Shown here: in pieces, positions 11,127-39,744 of the stretch
How positions within the stretch are numbered: the stretch's first letter is position 1
Layout of the letters: each line of letters starts with the position of its first letter
Assembly: GCA_029775855.1 (NCBI GenBank)
Contig: JARVJZ010000006.1
Span: 12,353 to 76,352, forward strand
Reading direction: 5' to 3'
Source: Nitrososphaeria archaeon
Lineage (GTDB): Archaea; Thermoproteota; Nitrososphaeria; Nitrososphaerales; JAAOZN01
Length of the DNA stretch: 64,000 nt
Translations under genes and position numbers: made by a program
Notes under the pieces: generated by a model
What the model was told of the DNA's origin: nothing
The model's database searches: none
Seen by the model: the letters and a program-made list of their open reading frames with translations, nothing else

Positions 11127-11789
11127 TTATGTCTTTTGCCGGAAATGGTTACTCTGAAGTATTGTGTATAATGCTGCTGCGAGTGCACCCTCTTCAGCAG
11201 CTTTAACAGAATTACCTCCAACGATAATAATTGAATCACCATCTCTAGGTTCTAAAAGAGACTTCAGAGAGTCCCAGAGGGGAATAAGATAACTCTTTTC
11301 AAGGTCAATTTCCGTATGAGGAAGTAAAAATCGCTTACCCAAATATACTATTGTCGTCGCACCATCCGCCCCAGCCCTAACAGCAGCATCACGCTGCTCC
11401 AACCCAGACTTTACTTTAGACGCAGAATCTCGAATCAGCACCACATAATTCCACTTACCTTGGCTTAAAGGGCCGGCATCTATAGGCTTTGGTGGTGTAA
11501 GCATTTTAAGGAGGCTTCTGTGAATTAATTTGCCTGCATCGGTCAATTTGCATCCACTACGCTCTACTTTAATAAGGCTACGCTCTTGAAGTCTGTTCAG
11601 CATCGTCCTAACCGAACCCTCACCTAGCTGAAGAATTCTTGCGATCTTCTTCCTACCTATAGGCGTATCCTCACCGAGCAAGAATATCAGCTTCAATATA
11701 TCAACTACTTCAAAAGTTGGTTTTGGACCTATAGGTTTCTCTAAAAGTTCAAGAAGCGTCTTTAAAGAGTTAAGTGGCTTAGTCTGCAT
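11127..11789 (-). CDS. Winged-helix transcriptional regulator with an uncharacterised C-terminal domain (possibly DUF4443-like)
   Basis: IGRKKIARILQLGEGSVRTMLNRLQERSLIKVERSGCKLTDAG is a MarR/wHTH-type motif. The ATG at 11789 is preferred because the ORF-track start at 11900 overlaps the upstream gene. Confidence 0.5.
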   Translation of the reverse strand: MQTKPLNSLKTLLELLEKPIGPKPTFEVVDILKLIFLLGEDTPIGRKKIARILQLGEGSVRTMLNRLQERSLIKVERSGCKLTDAGKLIHRSLLKMLTPPKPIDAGPLSQGKWNYVVLIRDSASKVKSGLEQRDAAVRAGADGATTIVYLGKRFLLPHTEIDLEKSYLIPLWDSLKSLLEPRDGDSIIIVGGNSVKAAEEGALAAALYTILQSNHFRQKT

Positions 11790-11829
11790 CCGTATAAAGA
11801 GTGTTAAGGATGTTGAAAAACTTGTTGGC

Positions 11830-12324
11830 TTATCTTCCAGCCGGCTTACGCAGATTAGGGTAGTTCGATGTATCTTCGTAGAGCCAAGCCAGTATATCAC
11901 CTTGCTTTATCATGTATTGGTCTGCGGCTGTTTCCCCTATTGTCCATTCACCTTTCTCTTTATCGAATCTCCACCATATCCAGTAGTGCCCTTTTTGAAC
12001 TACCTTTGTCCCGACACCATCTATACCATTAACGAAGACGCCCATATCACTTCCAAGATACTCCACAGATCGGCTAACCTTTAGAGTAGCGTTCAAAAGA
12101 GAAGAGCCTATTGGAAGAAGGGTGTTATTATGCCAAACCAAACTACCATTACCATAATCTATCAGCAAGTCAACTTCAAAAGCAACACCCCTTAACTCAC
12201 TTAAAACATAATTATAGCGGCTCTTAACATCAATGCTATCAAGATAAAAGTAGACAGAAAGGCCACTACTTAACACAAGAAGGATCAAAAGGACAACCGA
12301 TAGAGCGGAGAGACCTTTCTTCAA
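11830..12324 (-). CDS. Membrane-anchored extracytoplasmic DUF4430-like protein (transcobalamin-like beta-grasp)
   Basis: N-terminal signal/anchor helix LSALSVVLLILLVLSSGL. C-terminal GHYWIWWRFDKEKGEWTIGETAADQYMIKQGDILAWLYED matches the DUF4430 pattern (yW.y.vNg...vga..y.lkdGD.i.w.y). The TTG start abuts the upstream stop. Confidence 0.6.
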   Translation of the reverse strand: MKKGLSALSVVLLILLVLSSGLSVYFYLDSIDVKSRYNYVLSELRGVAFEVDLLIDYGNGSLVWHNNTLLPIGSSLLNATLKVSRSVEYLGSDMGVFVNGIDGVGTKVVQKGHYWIWWRFDKEKGEWTIGETAADQYMIKQGDILAWLYEDTSNYPNLRKPAGR

Positions 12325-12873
12325 CTACTTCACCTTCAACACTTGAACACTGAGCAGATTTGAAACAAGAGGAACCAACTTAGGAGGAAAGAAGGAGAAA
12401 AGAACAAGGTTAGAAGCTTGATGAAGCAGACCCAGAGGAACAGGAAAGTTCATAGTAAGAACACCAACCAACACCCCAGGCCAAAGAGTATTTGTAAAAA
12501 GAACACCGCTCACAGCATTAGTCAGCAGATCATAGCTCAAAGTAGAGAGTAGCCCAATTAACCCAAGTTTAAGAGGATGAAGAATACCCCTCCTAGCACA
12601 GAAAGAACCAGCAGCGGCATAAAAGACTTCACAACAAGCCACAGAAATCAGAACAACATAGGAGAAACCTAAGGGGTTAAATACACCATAGATCAGCCAA
12701 GAAAAAACAGCAACAACCACACCAAATCTGAAGCCAAGGGTATACGCAGAGATAAAGACTATAACATCCATAAGCTTGACATTCCAAATAGGGAAGAGCA
12801 GATAGTTTGTGGAAACCGCTAGCGCGGTAAAGAGGCATGCTGCTGCTAACATCTTTGCGTTTTTTGCGAGCAT
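12325..12873 (-). CDS. Polytopic membrane protein resembling an ECF-transporter S component
   Basis: About 180 aa with 5-6 TM helices and small Gly/Ala-rich helices, as in S components. The ATG at 12873 (MLAKNAKMLAAA) is preferred over 12942. Confidence 0.45.
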   Translation of the reverse strand: MLAKNAKMLAAACLFTALAVSTNYLLFPIWNVKLMDVIVFISAYTLGFRFGVVVAVFSWLIYGVFNPLGFSYVVLISVACCEVFYAAAGSFCARRGILHPLKLGLIGLLSTLSYDLLTNAVSGVLFTNTLWPGVLVGVLTMNFPVPLGLLHQASNLVLFSFFPPKLVPLVSNLLSVQVLKVK

Positions 12874-12970
12874 CTTGGATGGATTATCCAACCAACTTAT
12901 ATTAAAACATATCTCCAAACTAAAATGAGAAGCGAAGGTCAACTTTTATTAACAAGCAGTATACATTACT

Positions 12971-15046
12971 TTGCGTTTAAGGTTGGTGGGTGAACTGTTA
13001 TCCGGTAGCAAAAGAGTAAAGGGAATATTCTCTGTCATCGCTTCTGCTAATAGGCTTGAAATTGTAAAGATCCTTAACGCTAAAGGGGCTCTTAGCTACT
13101 CTGAGTTAAAGAGTTTAGCCGGTTTCAAATCTAAAAAGGAGTCTGGGAAATTCGCTTATCATCTTAGAAAACTTGTAAAACAAGGTCTAGTTACCTTAAA
13201 TAGGGCTGAGCGCAAATATATTATTACAAGTCTAGGTAGGCTTATACTTAACCTTAGTAGACAGATAGAGGAGCACGCGGTACTAGAGAGCGGAAAACTC
13301 TATGTGCGCACATCAAAACATAAGATAGAAGAGTTTAACACAAACAAGATTACACAAAGCTTAGTCAAAGAAGGCGGCATGCCCCTTGACCTTGCTCAAA
13401 AGGTTACCGCTGAGGTTGAGAATAAGATCTACAAATTTCAAACAACATATCTGACCGCACCATTAATCAGAGAAATAGTTAATGCAGTGCTCATAGAGCA
13501 GGGGTTTGAAGAGTATAGACATAAGCTTACTAGGCTTGGTCTCCCAGTCCACGATGTTATTGAGTTAATCAGTAAAGTCGGCTTATCTGGAGAAGGAGTA
13601 GAAGTCTTAATGAGTCAGACCGCTCAAGCCGTCTTTTCAGAGTTCCTCCTTCTAAACCAGTTGACCAAAGATGTTGCTGACCTTTATTTGGCTGGGGATA
13701 CGCACATCTCAAATCCAGGAAGATGGGGAATAGCTCCAGATACAGTTGTCGCCGATGCTGCTTGCCTTCAAACATCCAGCATAAATCCTAGTATGCGAAT
13801 GCTTGCTGCGCCTAGACTTACATCTCCAACAAACTTTTCAGAAGCGCTTTCAATACATTCTGCTGCAACGATTCTCTTAGCTTCGGAGTGCAATACTGAG
13901 CTCTGCTGGCTTAGATTTGGTGAATATGTTGCGCGTGCTGCTAAGGATATTTCTGACAAACAGTTGATGGAAGATCTATATAGAGAGTTTGTGTTGATAG
14001 GCACAGTTTTGGGGCAGAGGGGTGCTAAGCCGAGGGTTTCATTGCACATAGGGGAATGTGAGTTAACAGATTCAGATAGAACCAATAACATACTTGGGGG
14101 ATATAGAAGGTATGTTGAGGCAACACCTCTACCCACTATAAACATAGTTTTACATGGCAGCATAGGCGATGATACATTAAATGAGATTTACAAGCTAGTG
14201 ATGGTTGGAGGAAGCTTAGCCTTCTGTCCAAGCAAGCAGGACACTAACTCATATTTAGGTTTGAGGCTAAGTGCAACATCCCAAGAAATTTCTACATTAA
14301 GCATGCTTCTCCACGGCTTCTCAATAAACTTACCTCGACTAGCTAGAGAGTCCCAAGAAGATGAAATGTATTTTAGGGCGAAGATGACTATACTTCTAAA
14401 AGACGCTCTAGCAGCGCTACAGACCAGAAGAGGAATAATTCTAGAGCAAGTGAGAAAAGGAGTGCTCCCTATAATAGAGAACAACACACAGACAGCAGCG
14501 TTAGAAGAAATTCCAACTATCCTAAACTTAGCTGGACTGTTAGAAGCGTCTCAAATACTGCTAAAAGATAAGAGAAACCAGAGCGCGTTAATGTCCATAG
14601 CTGAGAAGACGATAGAAACAGCGGTTAAAGGAACAAACACAGAAGAGGAGACAGCTGTGTCAATAGTGCCGGAGGAAGGATTAGCAAGACTAGCGGCACT
14701 AGATATTGAGAGATACGGTAAAACAGCTACAATATCATCTTTGGAAGAAGGGTATTCAGCGAGCCTCGAGCTTGATGCAGATAAACTAGACGAAGAAAAA
14801 TTAAAACTAGCTGAAATATATTCAAGAAAATTGACCGGAGGATGCTCAATATCGGTCAGAATAAACCCAAATATGAACATTGACGGTTTTAAGGAAATCC
14901 TCAACACACTCTCAACCAGATTTACATTCTTTAAGATAGGCTTAGACATTAGCATCTGCAGAAACTGCGGAGCCAAGAACGCATCGACCGCAAGCCGCTG
15001 CAATGTCTGTAAATCGACACGATTGGCAAGGATGCAGATACTCTAG
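12971..15046 (+). CDS. ArsR-like wHTH + ATP-cone + NrdD-like (class III RNR) body lacking a glycyl-radical motif; candidate regulator
   Basis: aa 18-95: FSVIASANRLEIVKILNAKGALSYSELKSLAG...FAYHLRKLVKQGLV (wHTH). aa 108-190: KLYVRTSKHKIEEFNTNKITQSLVKEG... (ATP-cone). LYLAGDTHISNPGRW resembles the NrdD GDIHIHD region. C-terminal zinc ribbon CRNCGAKNASTASRCNVC, then only KSTRLARMQIL before the stop. Confidence 0.6.
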   Translation: MRLRLVGELLSGSKRVKGIFSVIASANRLEIVKILNAKGALSYSELKSLAGFKSKKESGKFAYHLRKLVKQGLVTLNRAERKYIITSLGRLILNLSRQIEEHAVLESGKLYVRTSKHKIEEFNTNKITQSLVKEGGMPLDLAQKVTAEVENKIYKFQTTYLTAPLIREIVNAVLIEQGFEEYRHKLTRLGLPVHDVIELISKVGLSGEGVEVLMSQTAQAVFSEFLLLNQLTKDVADLYLAGDTHISNPGRWGIAPDTVVADAACLQTSSINPSMRMLAAPRLTSPTNFSEALSIHSAATILLASECNTELCWLRFGEYVARAAKDISDKQLMEDLYREFVLIGTVLGQRGAKPRVSLHIGECELTDSDRTNNILGGYRRYVEATPLPTINIVLHGSIGDDTLNEIYKLVMVGGSLAFCPSKQDTNSYLGLRLSATSQEISTLSMLLHGFSINLPRLARESQEDEMYFRAKMTILLKDALAALQTRRGIILEQVRKGVLPIIENNTQTAALEEIPTILNLAGLLEASQILLKDKRNQSALMSIAEKTIETAVKGTNTEEETAVSIVPEEGLARLAALDIERYGKTATISSLEEGYSASLELDADKLDEEKLKLAEIYSRKLTGGCSISVRINPNMNIDGFKEILNTLSTRFTFFKIGLDISICRNCGAKNASTASRCNVCKSTRLARMQIL

Positions 15047-15114
15047 CCGCGTAAGCACAGCATTGAAGTTAGGAATTTATAATACGCACGTCAGTTCAGA
15101 CACCAACTCAATAG

Positions 15115-15139
15115 TAGAGCCTCAGTAAAGGAGGCTTTG
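15115..15139 (+). promoter_or_regulatory. Hairpin in the intergenic region upstream of nrdJ
   Basis: TAGAGCCTC-AGTAAAG-GAGGCTTTG: a perfect 6-bp core AGCCTC/GAGGCT, extendable to 9 bp with wobble pairs, with a 7-nt loop. Function unknown. Confidence 0.25.
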
Positions 15140-15202
15140 TCAAAAAATCTTGATGAATAAAAGGAAGTACAGTCCCTTCTTAATCTAGGAGCTACTTATT
15201 GG

Positions 15203-17350
15203 GTGGTATTTAGGTTGACATCTGAGTCTCAAAGTGGTCTATCAACCGTTAGGAAGCGGGATGGTAGAATAGTACCATTTGATAGATTAAAGATAGCTAA
15301 TGCGATTTACAAAGCTGCTAAATCTGTTAATGAAGGTGACCTGAATGTTGCTGACGAGCTATCATTAAAAGTTGTTAAAGTATTAGAGGAGAAGTATAAG
15401 AATGGCGGTATACCTACTGTAGAGGAGATTCAAGATGTAGTAGAAACAACTTTGATTAATGACGGATACGCTAAGGTGGCTAAGGCCTACATTCTCTATA
15501 GGCAGAAGAGGGCTGAGCTTAGGCGTGCAAAAGCACTTCTTGGTGTTGAAGATGATCTAAAGCTTCCTATAAACGCCGTAACCATTTTGGCTGCCAGATA
15601 CTTGCGCAGAGACGAAAACAGAAGGTTAATCGAGACGCCGAGACAGCTCTTCATGAGAGTGGCTAAGACAGTAGCTGAGGTTGACCTACTTTACAACCCT
15701 TCAGCTAAGGTTGAAGAGACCGCTAAGGAGTTCTTTGACATGATGGTTAACTTTGAATTTCTACCTAACTCGCCAACGCTTATGAATGCTGGGACAGAGT
15801 TAGGGCAGCTTTCTGCATGCTTTGTCCTTCCTGTAGAAGATTCTATTGACGGCATATTTACCACACTAAAGCACGCAGCGTTAATACATAAGAGCGGCGG
15901 GGGGACTGGCTTCTCCTTTTCCAGATTAAGACCAAAAGGGGATGTTGTGAAGACTACAGGCGGCATCGCATCAGGCCCTATTTCTTTTATGACGGTCTTC
16001 GACGCAGCTACAAACGCGATTAAACAAGGTGGTAAACGCAGAGGAGCTAATATGGGTGTGTTGAGAGTAGATCATCCAGATATACTTGAGTTTATAACAG
16101 CAAAGGAGAAGGAGGGCAGGCTCTCGAACTTTAACATCTCAGTAGCTATAACTGACAGATTTATGGATGCTGTCATAAACGGTGAAGACTATGATCTTAT
16201 AAATCCACGCACAGGTCAAGCAGTGCAGAGGCTCAACGCCAGAGTAGTCTGGAATCTTATAATAGCAATGGCTTGGAAGAATGGTGAACCTGGTGTGCTG
16301 TTTATAGATAGGATAAATGCTATGCATACTGTTCCTCATGTTGGAACGATAGAGGCTACGAATCCTTGTGGTGAGCAGCCGCTTATTCCTTACGAGTCAT
16401 GTAATCTAGGTTCGATTAATTTAGCGAAGATGGTGGTTGATGGTAGAATAGATTGGGATAAGCTTAGAAACACGGTTGAAAAGGCGGTGCACTTCTTGGA
16501 TAATGTGATAGATGCTAATAAGTATCCTTTACCTGAAATTGAGAAGATAACAAGGTTCGGGAACAGGAAGATCGGTTTAGGTGTTATGGGTTTTGCTGAC
16601 ATGCTGATAGAGTTAGGTGTGCCGTATAACTCTAAACCGGCTCTCAAAATAGCTGAGCAAGTTATGAGGTTCATCGAAGAGGTGGCTGTGAATACTTCAG
16701 TAAAGTTAGCTGAAGAGAGAGGCTCATTCGCTAACTTTAAAGGGAGCTTGTGGGAGAAGCGTGGCTTTAAATGCATCCGTAATGCAACCTTAACAACTAT
16801 AGCACCTACAGGCACGATAAGCGAGATTGCTGGCTGCTCCAACGGAATAGAGCCGCTATTTGCAATTGTCTACACTAAGGCTGTGAGGGAGACATTAGGC
16901 GAAAACCTTACAATAGTCAACCCGCTATTTGAGAATGTGGCTATAGAGGAAGGTTTCTACAGCGAAGAACTTATGAAGAAGATAGCTTCTTCAACATCAA
17001 TACAGCATATAGAAGAGATACCTGAGCATGTTAGGAGAATCTTTGTAACTGCGCATGACATATCTCCAGAGTGGCACGTGAGGATGCAAGCAGCATTTCA
17101 GAAATATGTGGACAATGCTGTGTCGAAGACGATAAACTTTCCTCACGATGCGAGTATGAACGACATAGAGCAAGCTTATCTGCTGGCATATAGGCTTGGA
17201 TGTAAGGGTTTGACCGTCTACCGTGATAGGAGCCGGAGTGTGCAAGTCCTCACTACAAAGAAGGGAGAAGAAGGGGAACAAACTGAACTATTGAATATGG
17301 GCGCTAAGCCTATCGAATATTATGTGCACTGTGAATCTTGTGAATTGTGA
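15203..17350 (+). CDS. nrdJ: Adenosylcobalamin-dependent ribonucleotide reductase (class II), with N-terminal ATP-cone
   Basis: 715 aa. ATP-cone [23 protein letters not shown]. Class I/II core motifs [44 protein letters not shown]-terminal Cys pair CESCEL. Confidence 0.9.
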
Positions 17351-39210: not shown

Positions 39211-39744
39211 TTACAAAGCTTTAGCGTAACTTGCGCGCTCAAACTCGACAAGAAGATCGATATTACGCACCGCCTTAACAACCTTCTTAATCAACTCAAC
39301 ATCCAAAGGGAAGCGCTCCGTCTTTCTACCCGGAATTATAACCTTCGTAAGCTTGCTACCATCAGGCAGCCAAACCACGTTGACAGTCAAGATTCTTATA
39401 GGGTAGAAGAGGTCTTCAAGCATCTTACGGTCTGTAGACTCAGCCTCTATAAGCATAGTCTTACCACCCATAGCATCCTCTATACTCTTATGTATGGACG
39501 GGTTAGAACGCAAAATGTTAAGATTACCTGCAGCGAAGGTCAACACATAGACACCATCCACACTTTGAGCTCTTACCAAAGAAACTCTACTTAACTCAGG
39601 CACCTTTTCCGCTAACTTTGTCAACTTAATCGAAGCTTCGACATCAAGTTCACTAATATGACCCCCCTTAAGCCTCGCTTCACACTTAGGGCATAAAATA
39701 CCCGTCTTGGCGTCGAAGGCGCAGATGGGGGTCTTTATAGTCAT
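39211..39744 (-). CDS. Zinc-ribbon plus KH/NusA-like putative RNA-binding protein (tentative)
   Basis: N-terminal PICAFDAKTGILCPKCEARL zinc knuckle followed by alpha/beta repeats. Family assignment from memory only. Confidence 0.3.
   Translation of the reverse strand: MTIKTPICAFDAKTGILCPKCEARLKGGHISELDVEASIKLTKLAEKVPELSRVSLVRAQSVDGVYVLTFAAGNLNILRSNPSIHKSIEDAMGGKTMLIEAESTDRKMLEDLFYPIRILTVNVVWLPDGSKLTKVIIPGRKTERFPLDVELIKKVVKAVRNIDLLVEFERASYAKAL

Follow-up and report, generated by a model that had tools for sequence, protein, structure and literature searches.

The window analysed here is a 64,000-nt stretch of DNA from a Nitrososphaeria archaeon (contig JARVJZ010000006.1, positions 12,353 to 76,352 of the forward strand). 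A first-pass annotation had singled out an open reading frame at 12971-15046, next to a ribonucleotide reductase (RNR) gene, as a candidate transcriptional regulator made from an RNR paralogue, and this gene is our subject. The reading frame is real: it lies on the plus strand, opens with a TTG codon and encodes 691 amino acids (aa). As a 99%-identical database protein from a Nitrososphaerales metagenome-assembled genome has 686 aa, translation may in fact begin at codon 6, a GTG. The stop codon at 15046 is followed, after the 156-nt gap claimed earlier, by the GTG start codon of a class II RNR gene, nrdJ, at 15203 on the same strand. The two genes have the following features:

12971-15046, plus strand: regulator gene with a winged helix-turn-helix (wHTH), an ATP-cone, a dead NrdD-like body and a zinc ribbon; candidate RNR regulator
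13025-13246, plus strand: wHTH, aa 19-92, from Pfam DUF7347/HTH_20
13292-13516, plus strand: divergent ATP-cone, aa 108-182, from Pfam and a cone alignment
13568-14935, plus strand: NrdD-like barrel body, aa 200-655, without catalytic residues
14957-15010, plus strand: NrdD-type C-terminal zinc ribbon CRNC...CNVC (C663, C666, C677, C680)
15011-15046, plus strand: short tail KSTRLARMQIL and stop codon, not conserved
15203-17350, plus strand: nrdJ, class II (B12-dependent) RNR with a canonical ATP-cone of its own (TIGR02504, 753 bits); presumed target

The N-terminal domain had been described as an ArsR-type winged helix. Two Pfam profiles score above their cutoffs here, DUF7347 (aa 19-92, E 1e-8, 35.5 bits, cutoff 27.6) and HTH_20 (aa 24-76, 28.0 bits, cutoff 27); HTH_5 scores under its cutoff. 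There is also a weak alignment, over the helices and the wing, to the ArsR/SmtB repressor CadC. In this alignment the family-invariant stretch GKFAYHLRKLV falls on CadC NASHHLRTLYKQG, the recognition helix of that repressor, and the invariant stretch (SKKESGKFAYHLRKL) is presumed to be the recognition helix of the regulator. Known ArsR/SmtB proteins are small (~100-120 aa) metal-sensing dimers with alpha3N/alpha5 sites, whereas the regulator is a multidomain protein of 691 aa.

The large body had been read as a degenerate class III RNR. The Pfam NRDD profile matches aa 444-684 (E 9e-20), but only with profile positions 276-531 of 562, and the NCBIfam NrdD equivalogs all score far under cutoff (58.5 against 326 bits for a TIGR02487-type model, for example). 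An AlphaFold2 model, for which a family alignment of 62 sequences was used, reached a mean predicted local distance difference test (pLDDT) score of 79.4, with ~90 over most of the body. When this model was compared with the PDB using Foldseek, the top 36 matches were all class III RNRs, from S. thermophilus, T. maritima, T4 and P. copri, with E values from 1e-19 to 7e-10, target-normalised template modelling (TM) scores of at most 0.66 and about 560-700 aligned columns. Class I and II RNRs scored far below. Because the top matches are class III RNRs only, the N-terminal half of the body is NrdD-like as well, and in the model the entire region of aa ~200-655 is an NrdD barrel, extending beyond the C-terminal half visible to Pfam.

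The catalytic positions were mapped in two ways, by aligning the family profile to PDB sequences with HMMER and by a direct MAFFT alignment with three genuine NrdDs beside the bathyarchaeal orthologues described below. Residue numbers of the T4 and T. maritima enzymes are consistent with the chain positions in the HMMER output. The first active-site Cys of NrdD (T4 C79; RPFCQ in archaeal enzymes) falls on P256-D257-T258 of the regulator, where the family reads PDT-(V/I/L) and T4 N78-C79 are in insert state. The finger-loop thiyl Cys (T4 C290; QCC in bathyarchaeal enzymes) falls on G430-L431, at L431 in the MAFFT register, where the family has L or I, and on T424, a variable non-Cys residue, in the HMMER register. 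The first, by-eye mapping of this Cys lay ~6 residues off the HMMER alignment to T4; since the residue is not a Cys in either register, the loss of the thiyl Cys does not depend on the register chosen.

The C-terminus tells the same story. The chain ends ~2 residues short of the glycyl-radical Gly (T. maritima G621; SR(V/I)TGYY in bathyarchaeal enzymes), and the RxxG[YF] motif, already reported missing from this protein, occurs in none of 120 family members. The suggestion that RLARM takes its place did not hold, as these residues lie upstream of the motif in the alignment and are variable. The four Cys of the ribbon, which align to the T4 and T. maritima ribbons, are invariant in all 120 members, confirming the NrdD-style ribbon, and the tail after the last of them is 9-23 residues long (median 11) and not conserved. 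The bodies have a median of one Cys and a minimum of none, and no Cys in them is conserved. Motifs of NrdD that do not belong to the radical machinery are retained: AGDTHISN aligns to T4 SGIIHVHD, S. thermophilus KGDIHFHD and bathyarchaeal GDLHIHD, giving GDxHISN, and NLPR (453-456), RLAxLDxExYG (573-583) and GG (623-624) are also present. Among the window's open frames of 100 aa or more, none contains a radical S-adenosylmethionine (radical-SAM) CxxxCxxC motif, in agreement with the earlier remark that no activase gene is nearby.

Profile search, structural model and residue alignments agree on a degenerate class III RNR. A frameshifted or true enzyme had been named as the alternative; it is refuted by the absence of both catalytic Cys and by the uniformly short tail. 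That the regulator is a catalytically dead NrdD paralogue, a pseudoenzyme and not an assembly artefact, is strongly supported by the alignments, because all 120 relatives share the short tail without RxxG[YF] and the Cys are lost.

More than 5,000 clusters at 90% identity match the regulator, all ~690 aa long and of the same architecture, under database names as different as "ArsR family regulator", "helix-turn-helix protein" and "anaerobic RNR" or "anaerobic ribonucleoside-triphosphate reductase". In a scan of one genome per GTDB species the family was found in at least 540 species; among the matches listed all are Nitrososphaerota, with Nitrososphaerales, Nitrosopumilus, Nitrosotalea, Nitrosomirales and Gagatemarchaeum represented. 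Within the family, the wHTH has a mean pairwise identity of 0.84 and the cone one of 0.79, far above the 0.40-0.43 of the body (0.40-0.45 for barrel and ribbon), which points to selection being strongest on the DNA-binding and sensor modules. A few divergent representatives, P0220 (566 aa), P0211 (662 aa) and P0263/P0265 (773-797 aa, low-complexity), share the wHTH and ATP-cone and have shortened or very different bodies, and P0220, P0263 and P0265 are without the C-terminal ribbon. The architecture may therefore extend past Nitrososphaerota and Bathyarchaeia.

The synteny proposed for the window is a property of the family. In 73 of 80 fetched loci (numbered with L below) nrdJ lies directly 3' of the regulator gene on the same strand, and in the remaining seven the sequence ends at most 373 nt past the regulator stop codon; the synteny of regulator and RNR gene is essentially universal. 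About half or more of the partner NrdJs in the sampled loci have no ATP-cone of their own (L002-L050 soil Nitrososphaerales, L003, L010-L018, L021, L035, L038), and the NrdJs of the window and of Nitrosopumilaceae do have one at the N-terminus. The nrdJ reading frames of L021, L031, L035, L041, L046 and L050 are 1,100-1,486 aa long, which suggests inteins.

The ATP-cone of the regulator had been called canonical. It is an ATP-cone by Pfam (aa 111-182, 36.8 bits, cutoff 25.8) but not a canonical one. We aligned it without gaps to the cone of the window's own NrdJ and to the E. coli NrdA and NrdR cones. The phosphate-binding KR dyad of the canonical VxKRDG is replaced by T114-S115, so that the regulator reads VRTSKH against VRKRDG in NrdJ. 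I119, F122, K126 and I127 match the canonical cones, and E120, F122, K126, I127 and T162 are retained. As one genuine bathyarchaeal NrdD also has VRTSK, the variant is older than the pseudoenzyme. The isolated cone found nothing in the PDB by single-sequence search. Nucleotide binding by this cone is plausible.

The first-pass annotation had also suggested a search for shared palindromes at 12874-12970 and 15047-15202. In a k-mer count over the regulator-nrdJ spacers and the 200 nt preceding the regulator gene, TTGAC/GTCAA words stood out. We then scanned for the palindrome GTCAA-N6-TTGAC with at most one mismatch, varying the spacing from N2 to N11 and using shuffled sequence as control. The N6 form was found in 45 of 74 spacers and in 29 of 78 regulator-upstream regions (raw counts), with ~0.5 expected in shuffles. 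All other spacings were near background except N5 (15 spacers), which appears to be a Nitrosopumilaceae variant, GTCAA-N5-TTGAT. The arrangement TTGAC-N5-GTCAA occurs in 22 spacers, often sharing its GTCAA with an N6 box, which results in arrays with three or four half-sites. The two regions contain 2.63 boxes per kb, as against 0.030 per kb over the 919 kb that make up the rest of these loci, an 86-fold difference; as the 919 kb include many other promoters, those of pyrB/pyrI among them, this contrast rules out a generic promoter element. Three matches lie in the window, the third of which, at 39369, is within a coding reading frame. The other two fall one in each of the two regions suggested and are listed here with a conserved neighbouring block:

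12938-12953, no strand assigned: candidate operator box U, GTCAActtttaTTAAC, 17 nt before the regulator start codon, in a 79-nt divergent intergenic region
15139-15154, no strand assigned: candidate operator box I, GTCAAaaaatcTTGAT, 48 nt before the nrdJ start codon
15076-15097, plus strand: TATA-like TTTATAATA followed by an invariant CGCACGTCAG.TC block, conserved in the clade, in the regulator-nrdJ spacer

Box U reads GTCAACTTTTATTAAC with the TATA-like spacer TTTTATTAA, and box I reads GTCAAAAAATCTTGAT. To follow their conservation we aligned the window with five loci of its own clade, whose proteins are about 70-80% identical and whose intergenic DNA has 65-75% mean column identity. Upstream of the regulator gene the longest conserved block is GGTCAA(A/C)TTTTATTA(A/G)C, and upstream of nrdJ GTCAA-N6-T(T/A)GA(C/T) is conserved. 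In the box before the regulator gene, the N6 spacer is rich in A/T and TATA-like (CTTTTA in the window, ATACAA in soil lineages) and lies 17-37 nt before the start codon, which fits autorepression by occlusion of the TATA-binding protein (TBP) on a leaderless or short-leader transcript. The block at 15076-15097 could serve as the promoter of nrdJ or be bound by another factor; in the former case box I would lie 3' of the transcription start. In soil lineages the nrdJ boxes precede an ATATATA element.

Other elements were seen in the same intergenic DNA. About 23 regulator-nrdJ spacers (L005, L001, L051, L034, L026 and others), though not that of the window, carry a CGTCTCA(TG) element, and in marine lineages a CGTCTCA inverted repeat, ATGAGACG...CGTCTCAT, flanks the GTCAA box with its arms about 50 nt apart. 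The hairpin-like GAGCCTCagtaaagGAGGCTT (15117-15137) was rejected as a terminator or operator, its arms not being conserved in the clade alignment, and an Rfam scan of 12300-15400 returned no known RNA element, such as a riboswitch, at E <= 1.

A search of 1.84 billion representatives yielded distant relatives of 700-800 aa with ~30% identity to the regulator, those with names being from Bathyarchaeia. In four bathyarchaeal loci (three independent, as L083 and L084 hold the same protein) the orthologue lies directly upstream of a second NRDD gene, sometimes accompanied by a glutaredoxin- or thioredoxin-like gene. The pair is followed by pyrB on the minus strand (4/4 loci), pyrI on the plus strand (3/4) and V-ATPase genes (2/4), which is the order of the window: regulator, RNR, pyrB, pyrI, V-ATPase. 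The downstream bathyarchaeal gene has the QCC finger loop, WWSR(V/I)TGYYQ and its own ATP-cone and is without a wHTH; judged by these motifs it is a true NrdD enzyme. In the upstream paralogue, Ala or Ser occupies the Gly position in 51 of the 57 sequences, and the finger-loop Cys is kept in 76 of the 101, in which the respective motif pattern matched. Upstream of the grx-nrdD genes, ATACA(G/A)AATTTTATACAAC-like repeats were observed (L081 8308-8570, L082 8311-8399, L083 8302-8498), possibly a lineage-specific operator matching a different wHTH sequence.

The most economical reading of these arrangements is that the RNR class was swapped, nrdD for nrdJ in situ, while the regulator paralogue stayed. 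An archaeal nrdD would have been duplicated in tandem, and the upstream copy would have gained an N-terminal wHTH and lost its glycyl radical site. In the line leading to Nitrososphaerota, nrdJ would then have replaced nrdD in place, and the remaining paralogue would have lost its cysteines and been truncated at the radical domain. The extant proteins would thus form a graded series of decay, in which the Gly went first, the Cys next and the entire radical domain last. The retention of the paralogue across a change of RNR class suggests a function tied to the RNR gene or the dNTP pool and not to a protein partner specific to class III.

Taken together, these observations make it likely that the protein is an RNR-linked DNA-binding regulator. 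The fuller proposal, an autoregulated RNR-specific transcription factor that derives from a dead class III RNR and senses nucleotides, we consider reasonably probable. Its core had been anticipated in the idea of an exapted RNR paralogue controlling nrdJ, which the dead NrdD paralogue, the constrained wHTH and cone, the synteny and the boxes support in part. In our model the dead NrdD body would be kept as a sensor scaffold. An NrdD-like dimer, or a nucleotide-dependent oligomer, would place two wHTHs on the half-sites of GTCAA-N6-TTGAC, which are 11 bp apart from centre to centre. Binding to the box at the regulator's own promoter, with its TATA-like spacer, would compete with TBP and lead to autorepression, and through the box upstream of the RNR gene the regulator would control that gene too. 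Occupancy of the boxes would be set by nucleotides at the nearly invariant ATP-cone and possibly also at barrel sites, such that RNR transcription tracks the (d)NTP pool, as with bacterial NrdR. The DNA binding, dimerisation and ligand of the regulator, as well as repression rather than activation at nrdJ, are what we infer; whether ATP/dATP is the signal seems to us close to evenly balanced, with the doubts slightly ahead.

Several points weigh against this proposal. The sampled loci are related by descent and raw box counts overstate their independence; at the level of clusters of 60% regulator identity, the box is present in 6/10 clusters in the spacer and in 6/11 upstream of the regulator gene. 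At up to one mismatch, both the N6 and the N5 form are missing from 14 of the 74 spacers, and the GTCAA box is absent from the four bathyarchaeal loci. A different factor could bind the box. With the KR dyad missing and no sequence match in the PDB, binding of ATP/dATP is uncertain. Finally, the position of the box relative to the nrdJ core promoter varies by lineage and would suit activation, repression or a roadblock alike.

A regulator of this kind invites comparison with NrdR, which is rare in archaea (PMC9110341). Both couple an ATP-cone to a DNA-binding module, are encoded next to nrd genes and have palindromic boxes at nrd promoters and their own, those of the regulator having another sequence and a predicted occupant; the half-site arrays TTGAC-N5-GTCAA-N6-TTGAC of some lineages recall paired NrdR boxes. 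The differences are larger. NrdR, about 150 aa long, binds DNA by an N-terminal zinc ribbon, whereas the regulator would do so by its wHTH, has a ribbon that is C-terminal and of NrdD type, carries a complete dead RNR barrel in about 690 aa and has a cone without the KR dyad. Its box also appears unrelated to the NrdR box. Since it is not homologous as a whole and differs in DNA-binding domain, size, box sequence and origin, the regulator is an analogue of NrdR and not a member of its family. It resembles NrdD in the class III fold, a ten-stranded alpha/beta barrel, in an ATP-cone placed N-terminally of the RNR part, in the ribbon with four Cys and in the motifs GDxHxH/SN, NLPR and RxxxLDxEKYG; it differs in the missing thiyl Cys, second Cys, glycyl-radical motif and domain and nearby activase, in the additional wHTH and in being found in aerobic ammonia oxidisers with class II RNR.

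One-component regulators derived from enzymes offer a second parallel. B. subtilis PurR joins a wHTH to an inactive phosphoribosyltransferase fold, MocR/GabR/PdxR join one to an aminotransferase-like domain, and NrtR combines a Nudix-like domain with a wHTH. As in these, a DNA-binding domain would here be coupled to an inactive copy of an enzyme of the regulated pathway as ligand sensor; the difference is that the enzyme is a radical-enzyme alpha/beta barrel of ~450 aa with an ATP-cone, in another phylum and known here from sequence analysis. We found no description of the wHTH, cone and dead NrdD architecture in full-text searches of the literature outside subscription journals, and it would to our knowledge be the first radical-enzyme scaffold to serve as the sensor domain of a transcription factor. 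Some of the most abundant archaea of soils and oceans belong to Nitrososphaerota, and as far as we know the transcriptional control of archaeal RNR is largely unknown. A family present beside the RNR gene in hundreds of Nitrososphaerota species and in Bathyarchaeia would provide a concrete and testable regulator with a predicted operator. In addition, public names such as "anaerobic ribonucleoside-triphosphate reductase" are misleading, as they could suggest an anaerobic RNR in aerobic ammonia oxidisers.

A more far-reaching version of the proposal is that the entire RNR alpha-subunit serves as a multi-site nucleotide sensor, the cone reading ATP/dATP and the barrel (GDxHISN, NLPR, RxxxLDxEKYG, GG) binding substrate or specificity effectors, independently of RNR class. 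We put this forward tentatively and think it rather doubtful. If it is true, RNR transcription would answer to the balance of several (d)NTPs beyond dATP/ATP; the regulator would have controlled nrdD in an anaerobic ancestor and been kept when nrdJ took over towards the ammonia oxidisers; and where NrdJ is without a cone, the regulator would be the sole cone-based overall dNTP feedback encoded at the locus.

Among the rival explanations, the protein might be a DNA-binding regulator whose main role lies elsewhere, in replication, the cell cycle or general nucleotide metabolism, or the boxes might be bound by a different factor and the synteny be a relic of duplication. The conservation of pyrB/pyrI in the neighbourhood is in keeping with this, the box scan of this genome spans 64 kb only, and the conserved elements CGTCTCA and CGCACGTCAG suggest additional factors. 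We nevertheless judge it unlikely, given that the order of regulator and RNR gene is found in at least 73 species-level genomes and outlived a change of RNR class, and that the 86-fold enrichment was obtained against flanks that include pyrB/pyrI. Alternatively, the protein could act on RNR itself as a regulatory or accessory subunit, for instance an allosteric partner or assembly factor, with the wHTH serving protein contacts. The tight synteny, the full RNR-like scaffold with its non-radical NrdD motifs and the partner NrdJs without a cone, at least about half of them, to which a cone-bearing partner could supply activity control, would all suit such a subunit; yet a specific protein interface is hard to square with the switch from a class III to a class II partner, the wHTH is the most constrained part and its invariant stretch aligns to CadC NASHHLRTLYKQG, and a palindrome of specific spacing stands at exactly the two relevant upstream regions, which makes this explanation quite improbable. 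A functional class III RNR, or one that lost its Gly-radical domain through an assembly error, can be dismissed despite the NrdD fold and the "anaerobic reductase" type of database name, as the tail is short in every relative examined, neither catalytic position holds a Cys and some bodies have none, the window has no radical-SAM motif and the NCBIfam scores are far under the equivalog cutoffs.

The genes divergent from the regulator had been linked to B12 uptake:

12325-12942, minus strand, probable start at 12891: energy-coupling factor (ECF) S-component-like membrane protein, sharing the box U region; ECF_trnsprt under the Pfam cutoff
11830-12324, minus strand: DUF4430 gene, borderline at 24.3 bits (cutoff 23.8) in one relative

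DUF4430 is a transcobalamin-like C-terminal domain, which would fit B12 binding. Such a link would be restricted to the window's clade: only there are the pair conserved neighbours of the regulator, with no relatives found by tblastn (E <= 1e-5) in 80 wider loci, and the assignment to B12 is weak. Since box U sits in the shared 79-nt divergent region, co-regulation of these genes in the clade is possible, though it does not characterise the family as a whole. A near-perfect 9+1+9 palindrome, TGGATGGATTATCCA(A/T)CCA, at 12876-12894 spans the probable start codon of the ECF-S-like gene (TTG 12891, minus strand; M/L-D-N-P-S-K). It is conserved in five of six clade members and perfect in L085 and L089. 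Next to the pair a DUF4443 / PH0730-like / CggR_N HTH protein (11127-11900, minus strand) is conserved in the clade and is a candidate regulator of the putative B12-uptake genes; the palindrome could be a second operator, perhaps for this protein, or conserved coding sequence.

In many soil-lineage loci (L026 5821-5927; L008, L023, L027, L029, L041) a tRNA-like sequence ending in GGTTCAAATCCGGGCGACCCCA lies ~75 nt before the regulator gene. With ARAGORN, the one call made was an odd tRNA in L041, and the Rfam match, to the tRNA clan, stayed below threshold; the sequence is probably an intron-containing or long-arm archaeal tRNA.

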